This document shows positions 2,824-55,150 of a DNA stretch of 64,000 nucleotides, piece by piece; the first letter of the stretch is position 1, and each line of letters begins with the position of its first letter. The notes under the pieces were generated by a model. That model was not told where the DNA came from, searched no databases, and saw only the letters and a program-made list of their open reading frames with translations. The stretch lies in the NCBI RefSeq assembly GCF_055900595.2, contig NZ_CM148325.1. The stretch is one strand, 5' to 3'. A program made the translations under genes and the position numbers.

Positions 2824-2928
2824 TCACGAGGGCGCATTTGCGCCCTTTATTTTTCGTGCAAAGGAAAACGTTTCCGCTTATCCTTTGTGTCCGGCAAAAA
2901 CATCCCTTCAGCCGGAGCATAGAGATTA

Positions 2929-21586: not shown

Positions 21587-22340
21587 GTTGTCACCCTGGA
21601 CCTGGTCGTACATTTAAGAAATTAAATCATTTCAACTTGGTTGTTAACGCAACCTGTATTTTGTTAACGCCGCGTTACGATGGAAAGTATGTCTGCGGAA
21701 ATATTTTTAATAACTCACCTGCGCGTTGTATTTTTCTTTTTTTGTTCATACCAAAGTATTAAAACCCACGTAAATACGCTGTTATCTACGCAAAAAAATA
21801 TTTTGTTTTCTTTTAAATTTCGGTTTTCCGCAATCAAAAATCACCAGACAGTCATTCTTCTTGCCCGTCGCTGATTGCTGCGATATGTCTTGCGCACAAG
21901 CCGTGACAAACCTCGTCTTTTTGCAGTAAAAAATTGTCCACGGAGGTGTGGAGAAAAAACAAGAACGTTTTACATGACGAAAGGACTACACCGAAATATT
22001 TTTTATATGCATTATTAGCAAGTTAGCACCATTTGTATGATTTTTTAAAATTGTGCAAGAAAAACCAAATGTACAACTTTTCTATCATTTCTAAACTTAA
22101 TAAAACCTTAAGATTAACATTTTAATATAACGAGTTACATTTAGTTACATGTTTAACACTTGATTTAAGATTTGTAATGGCTAGATTGAAATCAGATGTA
22201 ATCCATTAGTTTTATATTTTACCCATTTAGGGCTGATTTATTACTACACACAGCAGTGCAACATCTGTCAGTACTTCTGGTGCTTCTATTTTAGAGGCAG
22301 CTGTCAGGTGTGCGATCAATAAAAAAAGCGGGGTTTCATC
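21587..22340. promoter_or_regulatory. Divergent csgBAC / csgDEFG control region (AT-rich, ~750 bp)
   Basis: Long AT-rich intergenic region between divergent csgB and csgD; by established knowledge it carries the RpoS-dependent csgD and csgB promoters and a long csgD 5-prime UTR; individual binding sites not resolved by eye. Confidence 0.7.
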
Positions 22341-27182: not shown

Positions 27183-27244
27183 TAGATACACATCTTGTCA
27201 TATGATCAAATGGTTTCGCCAAAAATCAATAATCAGACAACAAA

Positions 27245-27252
<8 letters not shown>
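27183..27252 (-). ncRNA. IS10 antisense RNA-OUT (position inferred from the canonical IS10 map, not independently delimited)
   Basis: By established knowledge IS10 pOUT produces a ~69-nt antisense RNA overlapping the 5-prime end of the transposase mRNA near the outside end; coordinates are approximate. Confidence 0.4.
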
Positions 27253-29222: not shown

Positions 29223-29310
29223 GGTGAGGTGTCCGAGTGGCTGAAGGAGCACGCCTGGAAAGTGTGTATACGGCAACGTATCGGGGGTTCGAATCCCCCC
29301 CTCACCGCCA
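29223..29310 (+). tRNA. serX: tRNA-Ser (anticodon GGA)
   Basis: GGTGAGGTGTCCGAGTGGCTGAAGGAGCACGCCTGGAAAGTGTGTATACGGCAACGTATCGGGGGTTCGAATCCCCCCCTCACCGCCA: cloverleaf with long variable arm, anticodon loop CTGGAAA, encoded CCA. Confidence 0.93.
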
Positions 29311-48574: not shown

Positions 48575-49213
48575 TTAACGTGGTCGAATCCCCTCAAGAA
48601 TAATCCGCTGCACGTTTTCAACCGTTTGATTGAAAAACACTTCATCGCGCAACGTGGCACCTGTCACCGCCTCCACCTGAGGGGCGAAATCGGCGTAATG
48701 TTGAGTGGAAGCCCAAATCATAAAAATCAAATGCTGCGGATCAATCGGCGCGAGTTTGCCGCTTTTAACCCAACCGGCAATCAGCGCCGATTTCTCATCA
48801 ATTAATGCCTTCAAATCGCCCGTCAGTTCATCCATTAACAGCGGCGCGCCTGCCAGCATCTCCATACAGAACAGGCGCGAAGCCTGCGGATAATCGCGGG
48901 AAACTTCCAGCTTCAGACGGATGTACTCTTTGATCGCTGCCAGTGGGGCGAAATCTTCACGAAACGCCTTCAATGGTGCCAACCAGATATCCAGAATTTG
49001 CCGCAGCACGGCAATATACAGCGCCTCTTTAGACGGGAAGTAATACAGCAGATTAGTTTTTGAAACGCCCGCCAACTCTGCGATCTGCTCCAGCCTTGTG
49101 CCGTGAAAACCGAATTGTGAAAAAGTGTCCAGTGCCGCGCTAAGAATCGCTTTTTTCTTCGCGCTTACTGCGCGCGAACGTTTACCCGTTGTTTTCACTG
49201 CGCCTTGCGTCAT
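48575..49213 (-). CDS. rutR: TetR-family pyrimidine utilisation repressor RutR
   Basis: 212-aa product MTQGAVKTTGKRSRAVSAKKKAILSAALDTFSQFGFHGTRLEQIAELAGVSKTNLLYYF (TetR HTH) from internal ATG of ORF 48575..49240. Confidence 0.92.
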   Translation of the reverse strand: MTQGAVKTTGKRSRAVSAKKKAILSAALDTFSQFGFHGTRLEQIAELAGVSKTNLLYYFPSKEALYIAVLRQILDIWLAPLKAFREDFAPLAAIKEYIRLKLEVSRDYPQASRLFCMEMLAGAPLLMDELTGDLKALIDEKSALIAGWVKSGKLAPIDPQHLIFMIWASTQHYADFAPQVEAVTGATLRDEVFFNQTVENVQRIILEGIRPR

Positions 49214-49318
49214 GCGCTCTCCCCTCTTGTTGATTGGCAACAGGATAGCAAAACCCCCGCCCGGCCTCGACCTTCTGCACTCTCATCGCGCACGAATGCA
49301 TGTTTTATGTGCAACTGT

Positions 49319-49334
49319 TTTGACCGTTTAGTCC
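49319..49334. promoter_or_regulatory. Putative RutR operator TTGACCGTTTAGTCCA
   Basis: Imperfect palindrome resembling RutR consensus TTGACCAnnTGGTCAA, between rutR and rutA. Confidence 0.45.
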
Positions 49335-49399
49335 ACTTTTTTCCAGGCATTTTAGACAACTTAATATTAACACATTAATAACATTCACTTTTTAAAAAC

Positions 49400-49415
49400 T
49401 GGCATCCGCTTTGCT
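49400..49415 (+). promoter_or_regulatory. Sigma-54 (-24/-12) promoter TGGCATCCGCTTTGCT upstream of rutA
   Basis: GG and GC dinucleotides at the canonical -24/-12 spacing (TGGCAC-N5-TTGCW-like), ~30 bp upstream of rutA ATG. Confidence 0.65.
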
Positions 49416-49443
49416 AACTAGACATTACGCGGCTGAAAAGGAT

Positions 49444-51284
<1,841 letters not shown>

Positions 51285-51295
51285 GGAGTTTAATG

Positions 51296-51682
51296 ATGCC
51301 GAAATCCGTAATTATTCCTGCTGGCAGCAGCGCACCGCTGGCCCCCTTCGTTCCCGGCACGCTGGCTGATGGCGTGGTGTATGTCTCCGGCACGCTGGCT
51401 TTTGATCAACATAACAACGTGCTGTTTGCCGATGACCCAAAGGCGCAAACCCGCCACGTTCTGGAAACCATCCGCAAGGTCATCGAGACGGCGGGTGGCA
51501 CGATGGCGGATGTGACCTTCAACAGCATCTTTATTACCGACTGGAAAAATTACGCCGCGATTAACGAAATCTACGCCGAGTTTTTCCCTGATGATAAACC
51601 GGCGCGATTCTGCATTCAGTGCGGACTGGTAAAGCCTGACGCGCTGGTGGAAATCGCCACGATTGCGCATATCGCCAAGTGA
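51296..51682 (+). CDS. rutC: Aminoacrylate peracid reductase RutC (RidA/YjgF family)
   Basis: 128-aa product [33 protein letters not shown]. Confidence 0.92.
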
Positions 51683-51689
51683 GGCCGCG

Positions 51690-52502
51690 ATGAAACTTTC
51701 ACTCTCACCTCCCCCGTATGCTGATGCGCCCGTAGTGGTGTTGATTTCGGGTCTTGGCGGTAGCGGCAGTTACTGGTTATCGCAACTGGCGGTGCTGGAT
51801 CAGGAGTATCAGGTAGTCTGTTACGACCAGCGCGGTACCGGAAATAATCCAGATACGCTGGCGGAAGACTACAGTTTGGCGCAGATGGCAGAGGAACTGC
51901 ATCAGGCGCTGATGAGTGTGGGGATTGAGCGTTATGCGGTGATCGGCCATGCGCTCGGGGCGCTGGTGGGAATGCAGCTGGCGCTGGATTATCCCGCATC
52001 GGTCACTGCACTGGTCAGCGTTAACGGCTGGCTACGAATAAACGCCCATACCCGCCGCTGTTTTCAGGTTCGCGAACGATTACTGCATAGCGGCGGCGCG
52101 CAGGCATGGGTGGAAGCGCAGCCGTTGTTCCTCTACCCCGCCGACTGGATGGCGGCCCGCGCCCCTCGCCTTGAAGCGGAGGACGCGCTGGCACTGGCGC
52201 ATTTTCAGGGCAAAAACAATTTACTGCGTCGACTTAACGCCCTCAAACGTGCTGACTTTAGTCGCCATACGGATCGCATCCGCTGCCCGGTGCAAATCAT
52301 CTGCGCCAGTGATGATCTGCTGGTGCCCTCAGCCTGTTCCAGTGAACTTCATGCCGCCCTGCCCGATAGCCAGAAAATGGTGATGCGCTATGGCGGACAC
52401 GCCTGCAACGTGACCGATCCCGAAACGTTTAATGCTCTGTTGCTCAACGGGCTTGCCAGCCTGTTACATCATCGTGAAGCCGCCTGTAAGGAATTGCTAT
52501 GA
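51690..52502 (+). CDS. rutD: Aminoacrylate hydrolase RutD (alpha/beta hydrolase)
   Basis: Product [29 protein letters not shown] from internal ATG of ORF 51663..52502; GHALG nucleophile elbow. Confidence 0.9.
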
Positions 52503-53089
52503 ACGAAGCCGTTAGCCCTGGTGCGCTTAGCACCCTGTTTACCGACGCCCGAACTCACAACGGCTGGCGGGAGACACCCGTCAGCGATGAGACGTTACGG
52601 GAGATTTATGCCCTGATGAAATGGGGGCCAACGTCAGCCAACTGTTCTCCGGCGCGCATCGTATTTATCCGCACTGCAGAAGCAAAAGAACGTCTGCGCC
52701 CGGCGCTTTCCAGCGGCAATCTGCAAAAAACCCTGACCGCGCCCGTCACTGCTATCGTCGCCTGGGATAGCGAATTTTATGAACGGTTACCGCAACTGTT
52801 TCCCCACGGCGATGCCCGCAGTTGGTTTACCTCCAGCCCAAAACTTGCTGAAGAAACGGCGTTTCGCAACAGTTCCATGCAGGCGGCCTATCTGATCGTC
52901 GCCTGCCGGGCGCTGGGGCTGGATACCGGCCCGATGTCCGGCTTTGACCGTCAACACGTGGACGACGCCTTTTTTACGGGCAGCACGCTGAAGAGCAATC
53001 TGCTGATTAATATCGGCTATGGCGATAGCAGCAAGCTTTATACGCGCCTGCCACGTCTGTCCTTTGAAGAAGCCTGCGGGCTGTTGTAA
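52499..53089 (+). CDS. rutE: Malonic semialdehyde reductase RutE (nitroreductase family)
   Basis: 196-aa [26 protein letters not shown]; 4-bp overlap with rutD. Confidence 0.92.
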
Positions 53090-53099
53090 GGAGCAAACT

Positions 53100-53594
53100 A
53101 TGAACATTGTCGATCAACAAACTTTTCGCGATGCGATGTCCTGCATGGGCGCGGCGGTCAATATCATCACCACGGACGGTCCAGCCGGGCGCGCCGGGTT
53201 CACCGCCAGCGCCGTCTGCAGCGTGACCGATACGCCGCCCACATTACTGGTGTGCCTGAATCGTGGGGCGTCCGTCTGGCCGGTATTCAATGAAAATCGG
53301 ACGCTGTGTGTAAATACACTTAGCGCCGGGCAGGAGCCGCTTTCAAACCTTTTTGGCGGTAAAACGCCCATGGAACACCGCTTTGCCGCCGCCCGCTGGC
53401 AGACTGGTGTGACCGGATGCCCGCAACTGGAAGAAGCACTGGTTTCGTTTGACTGCCGTATCAGCCAGGTGGTGAGCGTCGGCACTCACGACATTCTGTT
53501 TTGCGCCATCGAAGCGATTCATCGTCACGCTACTCCCTACGGACTGGTGTGGTTTGATCGCAGTTATCACGCGCTAATGCGCCCTGCTTGTTAA
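53100..53594 (+). CDS. rutF: FMN reductase RutF (flavin reductase family)
   Basis: 164-aa product [27 protein letters not shown] from internal ATG of ORF 53019..53594. Confidence 0.9.
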
Positions 53595-53614: not shown

Positions 53615-54943
53615 ATGGCAATGTTCGGTTTTCCTCACTGGCAGTTAAAATCGACCTCTACAGAGAGCGGCGTGGTCGCGCCGGATGAACGATTGCCGTT
53701 TGCTCAAACGGCAGTGATGGGTGTTCAACACGCGGTGGCAATGTTTGGCGCGACAGTGTTAATGCCGATTCTGATGGGGCTGGATCCCAACCTTTCCATT
53801 TTAATGTCGGGGATCGGCACGTTACTGTTTTTCTTTATTACCGGCGGGCGCGTCCCCAGTTATCTCGGTTCCAGCGCGGCTTTTGTCGGCGTGGTGATCG
53901 CCGCGACGGGCTTTAATGGTCAGGGAATTAATCCGAATATCAGCATCGCGCTGGGCGGGATTATCGCCTGTGGGCTGGTTTATACCGTCATTGGCCTGGT
54001 GGTGATGAAAATCGGTACGCGCTGGATTGAACGACTAATGCCGCCGGTTGTGACGGGTGCGGTGGTGATGGCGATTGGCCTGAACTTAGCGCCTATCGCA
54101 GTGAAAAGTGTATCGGCTTCGGCCTTTGATAGTTGGATGGCGGTAATGACGGTGCTGTGTATTGGGCTGGTGGCGGTGTTTACCCGTGGCATGATCCAGC
54201 GATTATTGATTCTCGTAGGATTAATTGTCGCCTGTCTGCTGTATGGCGTGATGACCAACGTTTTAGGGCTGGGAAAAGCCGTCGATTTTACTCTCGTCAG
54301 CCATGCTACCTGGTTCGGTCTGCCACATTTTTCCACTCCTGCTTTTAATGGTCAGGCAATGATGCTGATTGCGCCCGTGGCGGTGATTCTGGTGGCGGAA
54401 AACTTAGGTCATCTCAAGGCGGTCGCCGGGATGACCGGACGCAATATGGATCCATATATGGGGCGGGCATTCGTGGGCGATGGGCTGGCAACGATGCTTT
54501 CCGGCTCTGTCGGCGGTAGCGGCGTAACCACCTATGCTGAAAATATCGGTGTGATGGCTGTGACAAAAGTCTACTCGACGCTGGTGTTTGTTGCTGCTGC
54601 CGTCATCGCCTTGCTGTTGGGCTTTTCGCCGAAATTTGGCGCGCTGATCCATACCATTCCTGCACCGGTGATTGGTGGTGCTTCAATTGTTGTGTTCGGG
54701 CTGATTGCCGTCGCAGGCGCACGGATCTGGGTACAAAACCGTGTCGATTTAAGCCAGAACGGTAATTTGATTATGGTCGCAGTAACCTTAGTGCTGGGCG
54801 CGGGTGATTTTGCTCTCACGCTGGGCGGTTTTACGTTGGGAGGGATCGGTACAGCAACCTTTGGCGCGATTTTACTCAATGCGTTGTTGAGCAGAAGGTT
54901 GGTTGACGTTCCTCCGCCAGAAGTTGTTCATCAGGAACCATAA
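53615..54943 (+). CDS. rutG: Pyrimidine permease RutG (NCS2 family)
   Basis: 442-aa product MAMFGFPHWQLKSTSTESGV from internal ATG of ORF 53588..54943; multi-TM. Confidence 0.9.
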   Translation: MAMFGFPHWQLKSTSTESGVVAPDERLPFAQTAVMGVQHAVAMFGATVLMPILMGLDPNLSILMSGIGTLLFFFITGGRVPSYLGSSAAFVGVVIAATGFNGQGINPNISIALGGIIACGLVYTVIGLVVMKIGTRWIERLMPPVVTGAVVMAIGLNLAPIAVKSVSASAFDSWMAVMTVLCIGLVAVFTRGMIQRLLILVGLIVACLLYGVMTNVLGLGKAVDFTLVSHATWFGLPHFSTPAFNGQAMMLIAPVAVILVAENLGHLKAVAGMTGRNMDPYMGRAFVGDGLATMLSGSVGGSGVTTYAENIGVMAVTKVYSTLVFVAAAVIALLLGFSPKFGALIHTIPAPVIGGASIVVFGLIAVAGARIWVQNRVDLSQNGNLIMVAVTLVLGAGDFALTLGGFTLGGIGTATFGAILLNALLSRRLVDVPPPEVVHQEP

Positions 54944-54949
54944 ACAGAA

Positions 54950-55150
54950 AACCGCCGGGATTACCGGCGGTGCAGATTGTTGACAACGTGCGCATTGTTC
55001 ATGCCGGATGCGGCGTGAACGCCTTATCCGGCCTATAAAACAGTGCAAATTCAATATATTGCAATCTTCTGGTAGGCCTGATAAGCATCGCGCATCAGGC
55101 AAGCTTACATTTGTCATCAGTATCAACCGCCGGGGTAACCGGCGGTGATG
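54950..55150. repeat. REP/BIME cluster with flanking hairpins downstream of rutG
   Basis: ACCGCCGGG(A/G)TTACCGGCGGTG hairpin at both ends (54951..54975, 55126..55148) bracketing inverted REP units (GCCGGATGCGGCGTGAACGCCTTATCCGGCCTA; GTAGGCCTGATAAGCATCGCGCATCAGGCA). Confidence 0.8.

Follow-up and report, generated by a model that had tools for sequence, protein, structure and literature searches.

The rutR–rutA control region of an Escherichia coli chromosome: a sigma-54 promoter, a RutR operator, and predicted NtrC and IHF sites

Through which DNA elements is the pyrimidine catabolic operon rutABCDEFG of Escherichia coli controlled, and how could those elements act together? Here, we consider this question for a 64-kb stretch of DNA, called the window, in which an earlier note, made from the sequence alone, had read a sigma-54 promoter and a RutR-like operator upstream of rutA. 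The window is part of an E. coli chromosome and carries the gene order putP-putA-rutR<>rutABCDEFG, followed by ymdF and wrbA. The gene order at the rut locus is the same in strain K-12. The rut promoter, its dependence on sigma-54 and NtrC, and the RutR operator are already known, both in the literature and in databases. In what follows, these elements are located in the window, compared with their K-12 counterparts, and traced across the Enterobacterales.

The rut locus and its sigma-54 promoter

Gene annotation was taken from RefSeq for strain Z0117EC0005, which is 100% identical to the window over a 2.2-kb query around the rutR–rutA control region. The same query was matched in 5421 of 5426 complete E. 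coli genomes. Seven of 5425 matches to the rutR–rutA region lie on records labelled plasmid rather than chromosome.

Window positions 49214–49500 are the divergent rutR/rutABCDEFG control region of E. coli. On its left, rutR (48575–49213, minus strand) encodes the TetR-family, uracil-sensing regulator of 212 aa, divergent from rutA in the RefSeq annotation. The protein shares 211 of 212 residues with K-12 RutR, and the gene has no internal stops. On its right, rutA (49501–50592, plus strand) encodes a protein of 363 aa beginning MKIG if counted from the start chosen by PGAP. Six further genes annotated by RefSeq follow on the plus strand, each full length and free of internal stops: rutB (50592–51284), rutC (51296–51682), rutD (51690–52502), rutE (52499–53089), rutF (53100–53594), and rutG (53615–54943). 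The successive junctions from rutA to rutG measure −1, +11, +7, −4, +10, and +20 nt. All eight rut genes are open, begin with ATG, and, with the exception of rutD, have the K-12 lengths. Thus, the earlier description of an intact rutR-rutABCDEFG unit with overlapping or tightly spaced reading frames holds, with eight open ORFs and junctions that range from −4 to +20 nt.

RutD has 270 aa in the window versus 266 aa in K-12. The window has lost one nucleotide from a run of C shortly ahead of the K-12 rutD stop (window 52480–52502), which shifts the last codons, such that the protein ends in ...REAACKELL in the window and in ...REAAL in K-12; rutD overlaps rutE by 4 nt. Among the rut proteins, RutD also shows the greatest divergence, with 250 of 266 residues identical.

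The sigma-54 (RpoN) promoter, TGGCATCCGCTTTGCT, occupies positions 49400–49415 on the plus strand, 101 bp before the conserved rutA ATG at 49501. Specifically, it consists of the −24 element TGGCAT and the −12 element TTGCT, an exact match to the consensus. The GG (49401–49402) and the GC (49413–49414) stand at canonical spacing, one helical turn apart. Across both strands of the 64-kb window, TGGCAY-N5-TTGCW is matched exactly by TGGCATCCGCTTTGCT alone, compared with 0.34 matches expected from shuffled sequence. At least one exact match per 64 kb arose in 30 of 100 shuffles. A lone match somewhere in the window is not rare, whereas a correctly oriented match about 100 bp upstream of rutA is.

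Published evidence for occupancy of this promoter comes from K-12. Bonocora et al. (2015) reported a sigma-54 ChIP-seq peak upstream of K-12 rutA, site OS10, with the sequence CTGGCATCCGCTTTGCA, and genomic SELEX with the RpoN holoenzyme recovered the rutA/rutR spacer both with and without NtrC (Shimada et al. 2021). Compared with the K-12 rutAp element, 15 of 16 bases are identical in the window. The exception is the last base, immediately after the −12 GC, which is T in the window, whereas K-12 and six other E. coli lineages have A; both bases fit the consensus W. The window element is the counterpart of the K-12 rutA sigma-54 site, for whose K-12 allele occupancy has been published.

Conservation was assessed by scanning one genome per bacterial species with RutA, which yielded 80 rutA loci from Escherichia, Enterobacter, Klebsiella, Kosakonia, Buttiauxella, Pantoea, Erwinia, Serratia, Yersinia, and other genera. 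One locus that lacks upstream sequence was left out. The 79 usable loci plus the window make up the 80 sequences that serve as denominator. Upstream of rutA, an exact sigma-54 consensus exists in every one of the 79 other Enterobacterales loci, and rutR is divergent in 76 of the 80 sequences. The claim that the GG/GC pair at −24/−12 spacing marks a sigma-54 promoter is upheld by the uniqueness of the exact match, by its correspondence to the K-12 ChIP-seq and SELEX site, and by its presence in 79/79 loci. The element had also been placed just upstream of rutA, which is right as to its plus orientation and its position; the distance depends on whether rutA starts at 49444 or at 49501.

The start of transcription can be predicted from the promoter. 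By the rule of Bonocora et al., which counts 19 bp downstream from the center of the 17-mer (here 49407), the rutA transcript would begin at 49426 on the plus strand. This position lies 75 nt from the conserved ATG (49501) and 18 nt from the K-12 ATG (49444), and the latter value reproduces the "distance 18" that Bonocora et al. give for the K-12 start codon. The same authors noted that the status of the rutA promoter in EcoCyc was "predicted," without experimental confirmation. A literature search found no experimentally mapped rutA transcription start, and thus none that contradicts the −24/−12 element.

A second sequence with a published sigma-54 signal lies at the far end of the operon. 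Located 48 bp past rutG and directed back toward the operon, CCGGCATGAACAATGCG (54991–55007, minus strand) is the weak sigma-54 ChIP-seq site OA02, classified as "intergenic antisense" (Bonocora et al. 2015). It adjoins REP-like repeats and a match to Rfam family ES036 at 55037–55079. The other RNA matches in the window, taken at the Rfam gathering threshold, lie at 27183–27252 (minus), 2879–2928 (plus), 29223–29307 (plus), 37609–37802 (plus), 22194–22285 (plus), and 38945–39122 (minus). Families among these window matches are RNA-OUT, PyrC leader, one tRNA, Ysr251, ES056, and two naRNA4 (REP-derived). The RNA-OUT match implies an IS10 copy in the window.

The RutR operator and predicted NtrC and IHF sites

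The RutR operator, TTGACCGTTTAGTCCA, spans 16 bp at positions 49320–49335 and is centered about −98.5 from the predicted start. It is the exact reverse complement of TGGACTAAACGGTCAA, the intergenic rutA site of Shimada et al. (2008, Table 1), which is listed there with a score of 11/14. TGGACTAAACGGTCAA was bound in ChIP-chip, ranks among 16 high-affinity gel-shift targets, and coincides with a previously known RutR site (Shimada et al. 2008). The imperfect palindrome TTGACC..GTCCA, which the earlier note had likened to a RutR operator, is that operator, and the published bound site is where the note put it. From the end of the box to TGGCA, the gap is 64 bp, in keeping with the "about 65 bp" given before. 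The span proposed for the promoter and operator together, 49319–49415, is correct at its end and starts one base early, the box beginning at 49320.

Compared with the RutR consensus TTGACCAnnTGGTCAA, the box has three mismatches (11/14), with A4 and T13 present. Operator positions 4 and 13 are critical (Shimada et al. 2008), and both are consensus in the window. By composition alone the box is not significant, because RutR-like matches with three mismatches occur at chance frequency in the 64-kb window (4 found versus 2.9 expected). The box derives its weight from its identity to the published operator and from its conserved position. Shimada et al. (2008) place the operator at −114.5 relative to the start codon, versus −116.5 when counted to the ATG at 49444, a two-base difference in convention. 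For the rutA–rutR fragment, Nguyen Ple et al. (2010) determined a KD of 8.6 nM and found that uracil releases RutR with an I0.5 of about 9 nM, whereas thymine hardly does so. An intact gene for the cognate regulator, rutR, adjoins the operator.

The number of boxes differs between families. Enterobacteriaceae have a single RutR-like box that ends 63–65 bp before TGGCA. In Erwiniaceae, Yersinia, and Serratia there are mostly two, ending 72–74 and 52–55 bp before TGGCA, that is, approximately one helical turn to either side of the single Enterobacteriaceae box. The tandem boxes in the Erwinia, Pantoea, Serratia, and Yersinia loci are 19 bp apart.

Upstream of the operator lie two predicted NtrC-like enhancer sites. 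Site 1, TGCACTCTCATCGCGCA (49276–49292), matches the consensus TGCACCAnnnTGGTGCA at 10 of 14 positions and is centered at about −142, while site 2, TGCATGTTTTATGTGCA (49297–49313), matches it at 9 of 14 and is centered at about −121. The distance from center to center is 21 bp, equivalent to two helical turns. Singly, such matches are common: the window contains 25 with at most four mismatches and 151 with at most five. Across the 80 sequences, and allowing five mismatches, site 1 recurs at the homologous position in 72 and site 2 in 46, with the right half-site of the latter, GTGCA, present in 78. Among eight E. coli lineages, site 1 is invariant save for one spacer base and site 2 is invariant. 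In the window, 6 bp separate site 2 from the RutR operator. In the two-box families, the NtrC-like sites are displaced 9–10 bp further upstream, which keeps a constant 6–7 bp between the proximal site and the distal RutR box. This displacement also preserves helical phase.

An IHF-like site, TATTAATGTGTTA (49368–49380, minus strand), is predicted between the NtrC-like enhancer and the sigma-54 promoter. It is centered at about −52 and has one mismatch to WATCAANNNNTTR. Like the NtrC-like sites, it is a weak consensus match when taken singly. With at most one mismatch, the site recurs at the same position and on the same strand (−32 ± 1 from TGGCA) in 56 of the 80 sequences, with several perfect matches, while the chance expectation is about 0.002 per locus. 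We infer two NtrC sites and one IHF site at rutA from these comparisons.

Direct binding of NtrC or IHF at rutA is undocumented in the literature examined. Specifically, we found no published IHF binding data for the rutA control region, the rutA spacer is absent from the genomic SELEX table for NtrC alone at a 40% cut-off, and rut goes unmentioned in the main text of the NtrC ChIP-seq study of Brown et al. (2014). Several papers report that rut expression under nitrogen limitation is NtrC dependent, and a figure in a 2024 paper draws the rutA–G promoter with sigma-54, NtrC boxes, and a RutR box. NtrC/sigma-54 control of pyrimidine catabolism, as had been proposed for the window, agrees with this published dependence and with the sigma-54 ChIP-seq and SELEX site.

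In an anchored alignment of the loci, discrete conserved blocks alternate with free spacers. The same pattern exists within the species: in eight E. coli lineages, substitutions fall between, not within, the five elements. The alignment to K-12 extends over 331 bp without an indel, with identical RutR box and identical spacing. Twelve substitutions distinguish the two control regions, and the 11 besides that in TTGCT lie in spacers or in the early leader.

The 161-bp control region (49270–49430) is a hotspot of within-species variability in E. coli. Most E. coli genomes are 80–95% identical to the window over these 161 bp, versus 95–99% over the 2.2-kb region. Identity of at least 99% over the 161 bp is found in only 9 of 5420 E. 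coli genomes, and thus, the window allele is rare.

On the rutR side, the interval from the rutR start codon to the NtrC-like sites holds a further block, ACAGGATAGCAAAAC (49240–49254), that is near-invariant in Enterobacteriaceae. Other genera carry CAGCATAGCAAAA in its place, and the rutR strand reads TTTTGCTATSCTG. The block might serve as an extended −10 element (TGcTATcCT) or belong to the rutR 5′ UTR. A consensus scan revealed no sigma-70 promoter for rutR, and a TAAAAT candidate, picked out by eye, is not conserved.

Control of rutA and competing explanations

Model promoters that combine NtrC, IHF, and sigma-54, namely glnAp2, glnHp2, and astC, have an enhancer at approximately −100 to −150, an IHF bend, and a −24/−12 element. 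Analogous to these promoters, rutA combines a consensus −24/−12 element with a predicted IHF-like site at about −52 and a pair of predicted NtrC-like sites that face the same side of the helix. Unlike them, rutA has a TetR-family operator between the enhancer and the bend. Through the RutR operator, the substrate uracil adds a second, specific input of its own to the nitrogen signal. Read against the predicted start at 49426, the order is NtrC-like site 1 (about −142), NtrC-like site 2 (about −121), RutR (about −98.5), IHF-like (about −52), and sigma-54 (−24/−12).

A second useful comparison is the RutR operator of carAB P1, which involves the same protein, the same 16-bp motif family (the carA site, TTGACCATTTGGTCCA, scores 13/14), and comparable affinity. 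At carAB, however, RutR binds far upstream of a sigma-70 promoter and acts positively through antagonism of PepA, whereas at rutA it binds inside a sigma-54 enhancer region and acts negatively. Compared with the carAB site, the rutA site is the poorer match to the consensus (11/14) and the more sensitive to uracil. Reportedly, RutR controls the rut operon negatively.

We propose the following sequence of events. Sigma-54 RNA polymerase holoenzyme would form a closed complex on the −24/−12 element (49400–49415). Upon nitrogen limitation, phosphorylated NtrC would assemble on the enhancer sites at about −142 and −121, and a bend at the IHF site (about −52) would let NtrC~P contact the polymerase, enabling open complex formation and transcription from near 49426. 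When uracil is absent, a RutR dimer on 49320–49335, between the enhancer and the bend, would damp activation of rutA. RutR most likely would do so by hindering assembly of the NtrC oligomer at the adjacent site or by stiffening, and so impeding, the enhancer–promoter loop. RutR would also autoregulate rutR, and uracil would release it. Within this scheme, the start point at 49426 is predicted, and anti-activation by RutR is the mechanism that we infer.

For the K-12 allele, the literature documents several of these steps, namely binding of sigma-54, binding of RutR to exactly the TTGACCGTTTAGTCCA site, its release by uracil, and NtrC-dependent expression. Publications likewise describe RutR as a repressor both of rutA–G and of rutR. 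In LB cultures in exponential phase, rutA mRNA was no higher when rutR was deleted. This result is compatible with repression by RutR because NtrC is inactive in LB, and from it, RutR repression of rutA is conditional. The fixed 6–7 bp gap between the RutR box and the NtrC-like site, together with the helically phased distance to the promoter, suggests that the repression would occur by anti-activation. The best overall explanation of the rut control region, in our estimate with a probability of about 0.9, is a sigma-54/NtrC promoter combined with a RutR operator in the anti-activation model.

Other readings of the same elements deserve weighing. One is that the RutR box mainly serves to autoregulate rutR as a roadblock; the sigma-54 promoter of rutA would then be under the control of NtrC alone and hardly be affected by the box directly. 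According to Nguyen Ple et al., RutR autoregulates by binding beyond the transcription start, where it may be a roadblock, and a −10-like hexamer, TAAAAT (49354–49349, minus strand), would give a rutR transcript in which the RutR box spans about +7 to +22. However, a consensus scan uncovers no sigma-70-like promoter, and the presumed rutR −10 region is variable. In exponential LB, RutR acetylation, like rutR deletion, left rutA mRNA unchanged, but that experiment is blind to repression of a promoter that needs active NtrC. Moreover, publications name RutR a repressor of rutA–G, and the fixed, helically phased distance between box and promoter and the 6–7 bp gap to the NtrC-like site point to a constraint on the rutA side. 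We consider a predominantly autoregulatory box unlikely.

Far less probable still is a positive role, in which RutR would not repress the sigma-54 promoter but co-activate it, for instance by lending architectural help to the enhancer loop. One paper does word its role as "in the activation" of rutABCDEFG, and strict helical phasing would suit an architectural function. Against this, RutR is termed a repressor of rutA–G elsewhere in the literature, also in the paper that defined its regulon, and uracil, which is the substrate, releases RutR, as repressor logic for a catabolic operon would have it. That the sigma-54 and RutR motifs are functionless chance matches to their consensus sequences has next to no probability, even though nearly a third of shuffles produced an exact sigma-54 match and RutR-like matches with three mismatches occur at the chance level. 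The motifs have the correct position and orientation with respect to rutA, match sites that are experimentally bound in K-12, are kept in 79/79 loci spanning several families, and are invariant in E. coli while the spacers vary. Conservation and the published binding data refute the chance reading. The sigma-54/NtrC promoter with a RutR operator that would act by anti-activation is the reading that we retain.

The start codon and leader of rutA

Two start codons have been assigned to rutA: the K-12 annotation uses the ATG at 49444 (382 aa), versus the ATG at 49501 (363 aa) chosen by PGAP. Both the 382-aa and the 363-aa forms of RutA have been crystallized. The long K-12 start is probably mis-annotated, and 49501 is probably the true start, because the 19-codon extension does not stay in frame across genera, because it contains an in-frame TGA in E. 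coli SCPM-O-B-8794, because the spacing from the GGA to the ATG at 49444 is only 1 nt (0–2 nt), and because a Shine-Dalgarno sequence is conserved ahead of 49501 in all loci. Translation from the ATG at 49444, either as a leader peptide or as a long RutA N terminus, was considered and largely rejected, as the frames are split among 40, 13, and 12 loci. A coding leader was likewise disfavored: the CAG and GCA codons do not vary at their wobble positions, whereas the residue encoded by codon 5 varies freely.

With the start at 49501, the predicted leader comprises 75 nt (49426–49500). It contains a conserved mini-hairpin, UGC-AGGAU-GCA (49445–49455, plus strand), with CAGGAUG at 49447–49453. The core, UGCAGGA(U/A/C)GCA, is strongly conserved, including at the would-be codon wobble positions. 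Of 66 loci with long leaders, 57 have CAGGA[ACT]G at +21 to +27, whereas none of the 14 with short leaders (30–54 nt) has it. Short leaders of this kind occur, for example, in the Enterobacter cloacae complex, Buttiauxella, and Yersinia.

The arrangement resembles a binding site for CsrA. In the centroid fold of the E. coli leader, AGGAU occupies the loop of a 3-bp UGC/GCA stem, and a second GGA exists at 49440–49442, about 10 nt upstream of the GGA in the mini-hairpin. The leader thus displays the CsrA-site pattern of a GGA in a hairpin loop plus a second GGA within a spacing of 10–63 nt. As in the repeats of CsrB, a CsrA-sequestering RNA, the leader core is exactly CAGGA(U/A/C)G, in the same three variants at the same position and in a hairpin loop. 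The rutA motif, a candidate CsrA site, does not lie at the Shine-Dalgarno sequence of rutA.

Structural conservation beyond the core is limited. RNAalifold applied to 54 leaders yields only a 2-bp mini-hairpin core (−0.55 kcal/mol). A 7-bp outer stem, drawn by hand, is 83% paired and has one covarying pair at the level of a clade. The E. coli leader folds less well than shuffled sequences (z = +1.8), and an E-value scan of 49200–49650 against Rfam returned no family match up to E = 10.

Data on CsrA exist for K-12. In the CLIP-seq supplement of Potts et al. (2017), peak_110 (1074528–1074704) falls within the rutR coding sequence. Converted to window coordinates, this peak lies at 48751–48927 on the minus strand, in rutR. 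The CsrA CLIP-seq and RNA-seq supplements, which derive from LB cultures in which rutA is silent, have no rutA entry, and a literature search found no paper that links CsrA to rutA. We tentatively suggest that the rutA leader, rather than being a mere untranslated spacer or, as the K-12 annotation has it, the N terminus of RutA, may hold a post-transcriptional control element that would tie pyrimidine catabolism to carbon status by means of CsrA or another RNA-binding factor; by our reckoning the odds are against this notion. The CsrA-type leader motif is a possible novelty, and it represents a lead, not a result.

For the strain from which the window derives, confirmation of the promoter and operator means that it has a normal, probably functional locus for scavenging nitrogen from pyrimidines, nothing more. 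Phylogenetic footprinting pins likely NtrC and IHF sites at rutA, where the literature yielded no footprint. The CsrB-type leader motif ranges from Escherichia to Pantoea, Erwinia, and Serratia. If its proposed role is true, the CLIP peak in rutR and the leader of rutA would together connect the Csr system to the rut regulon at two levels, atop control by NtrC and RutR.
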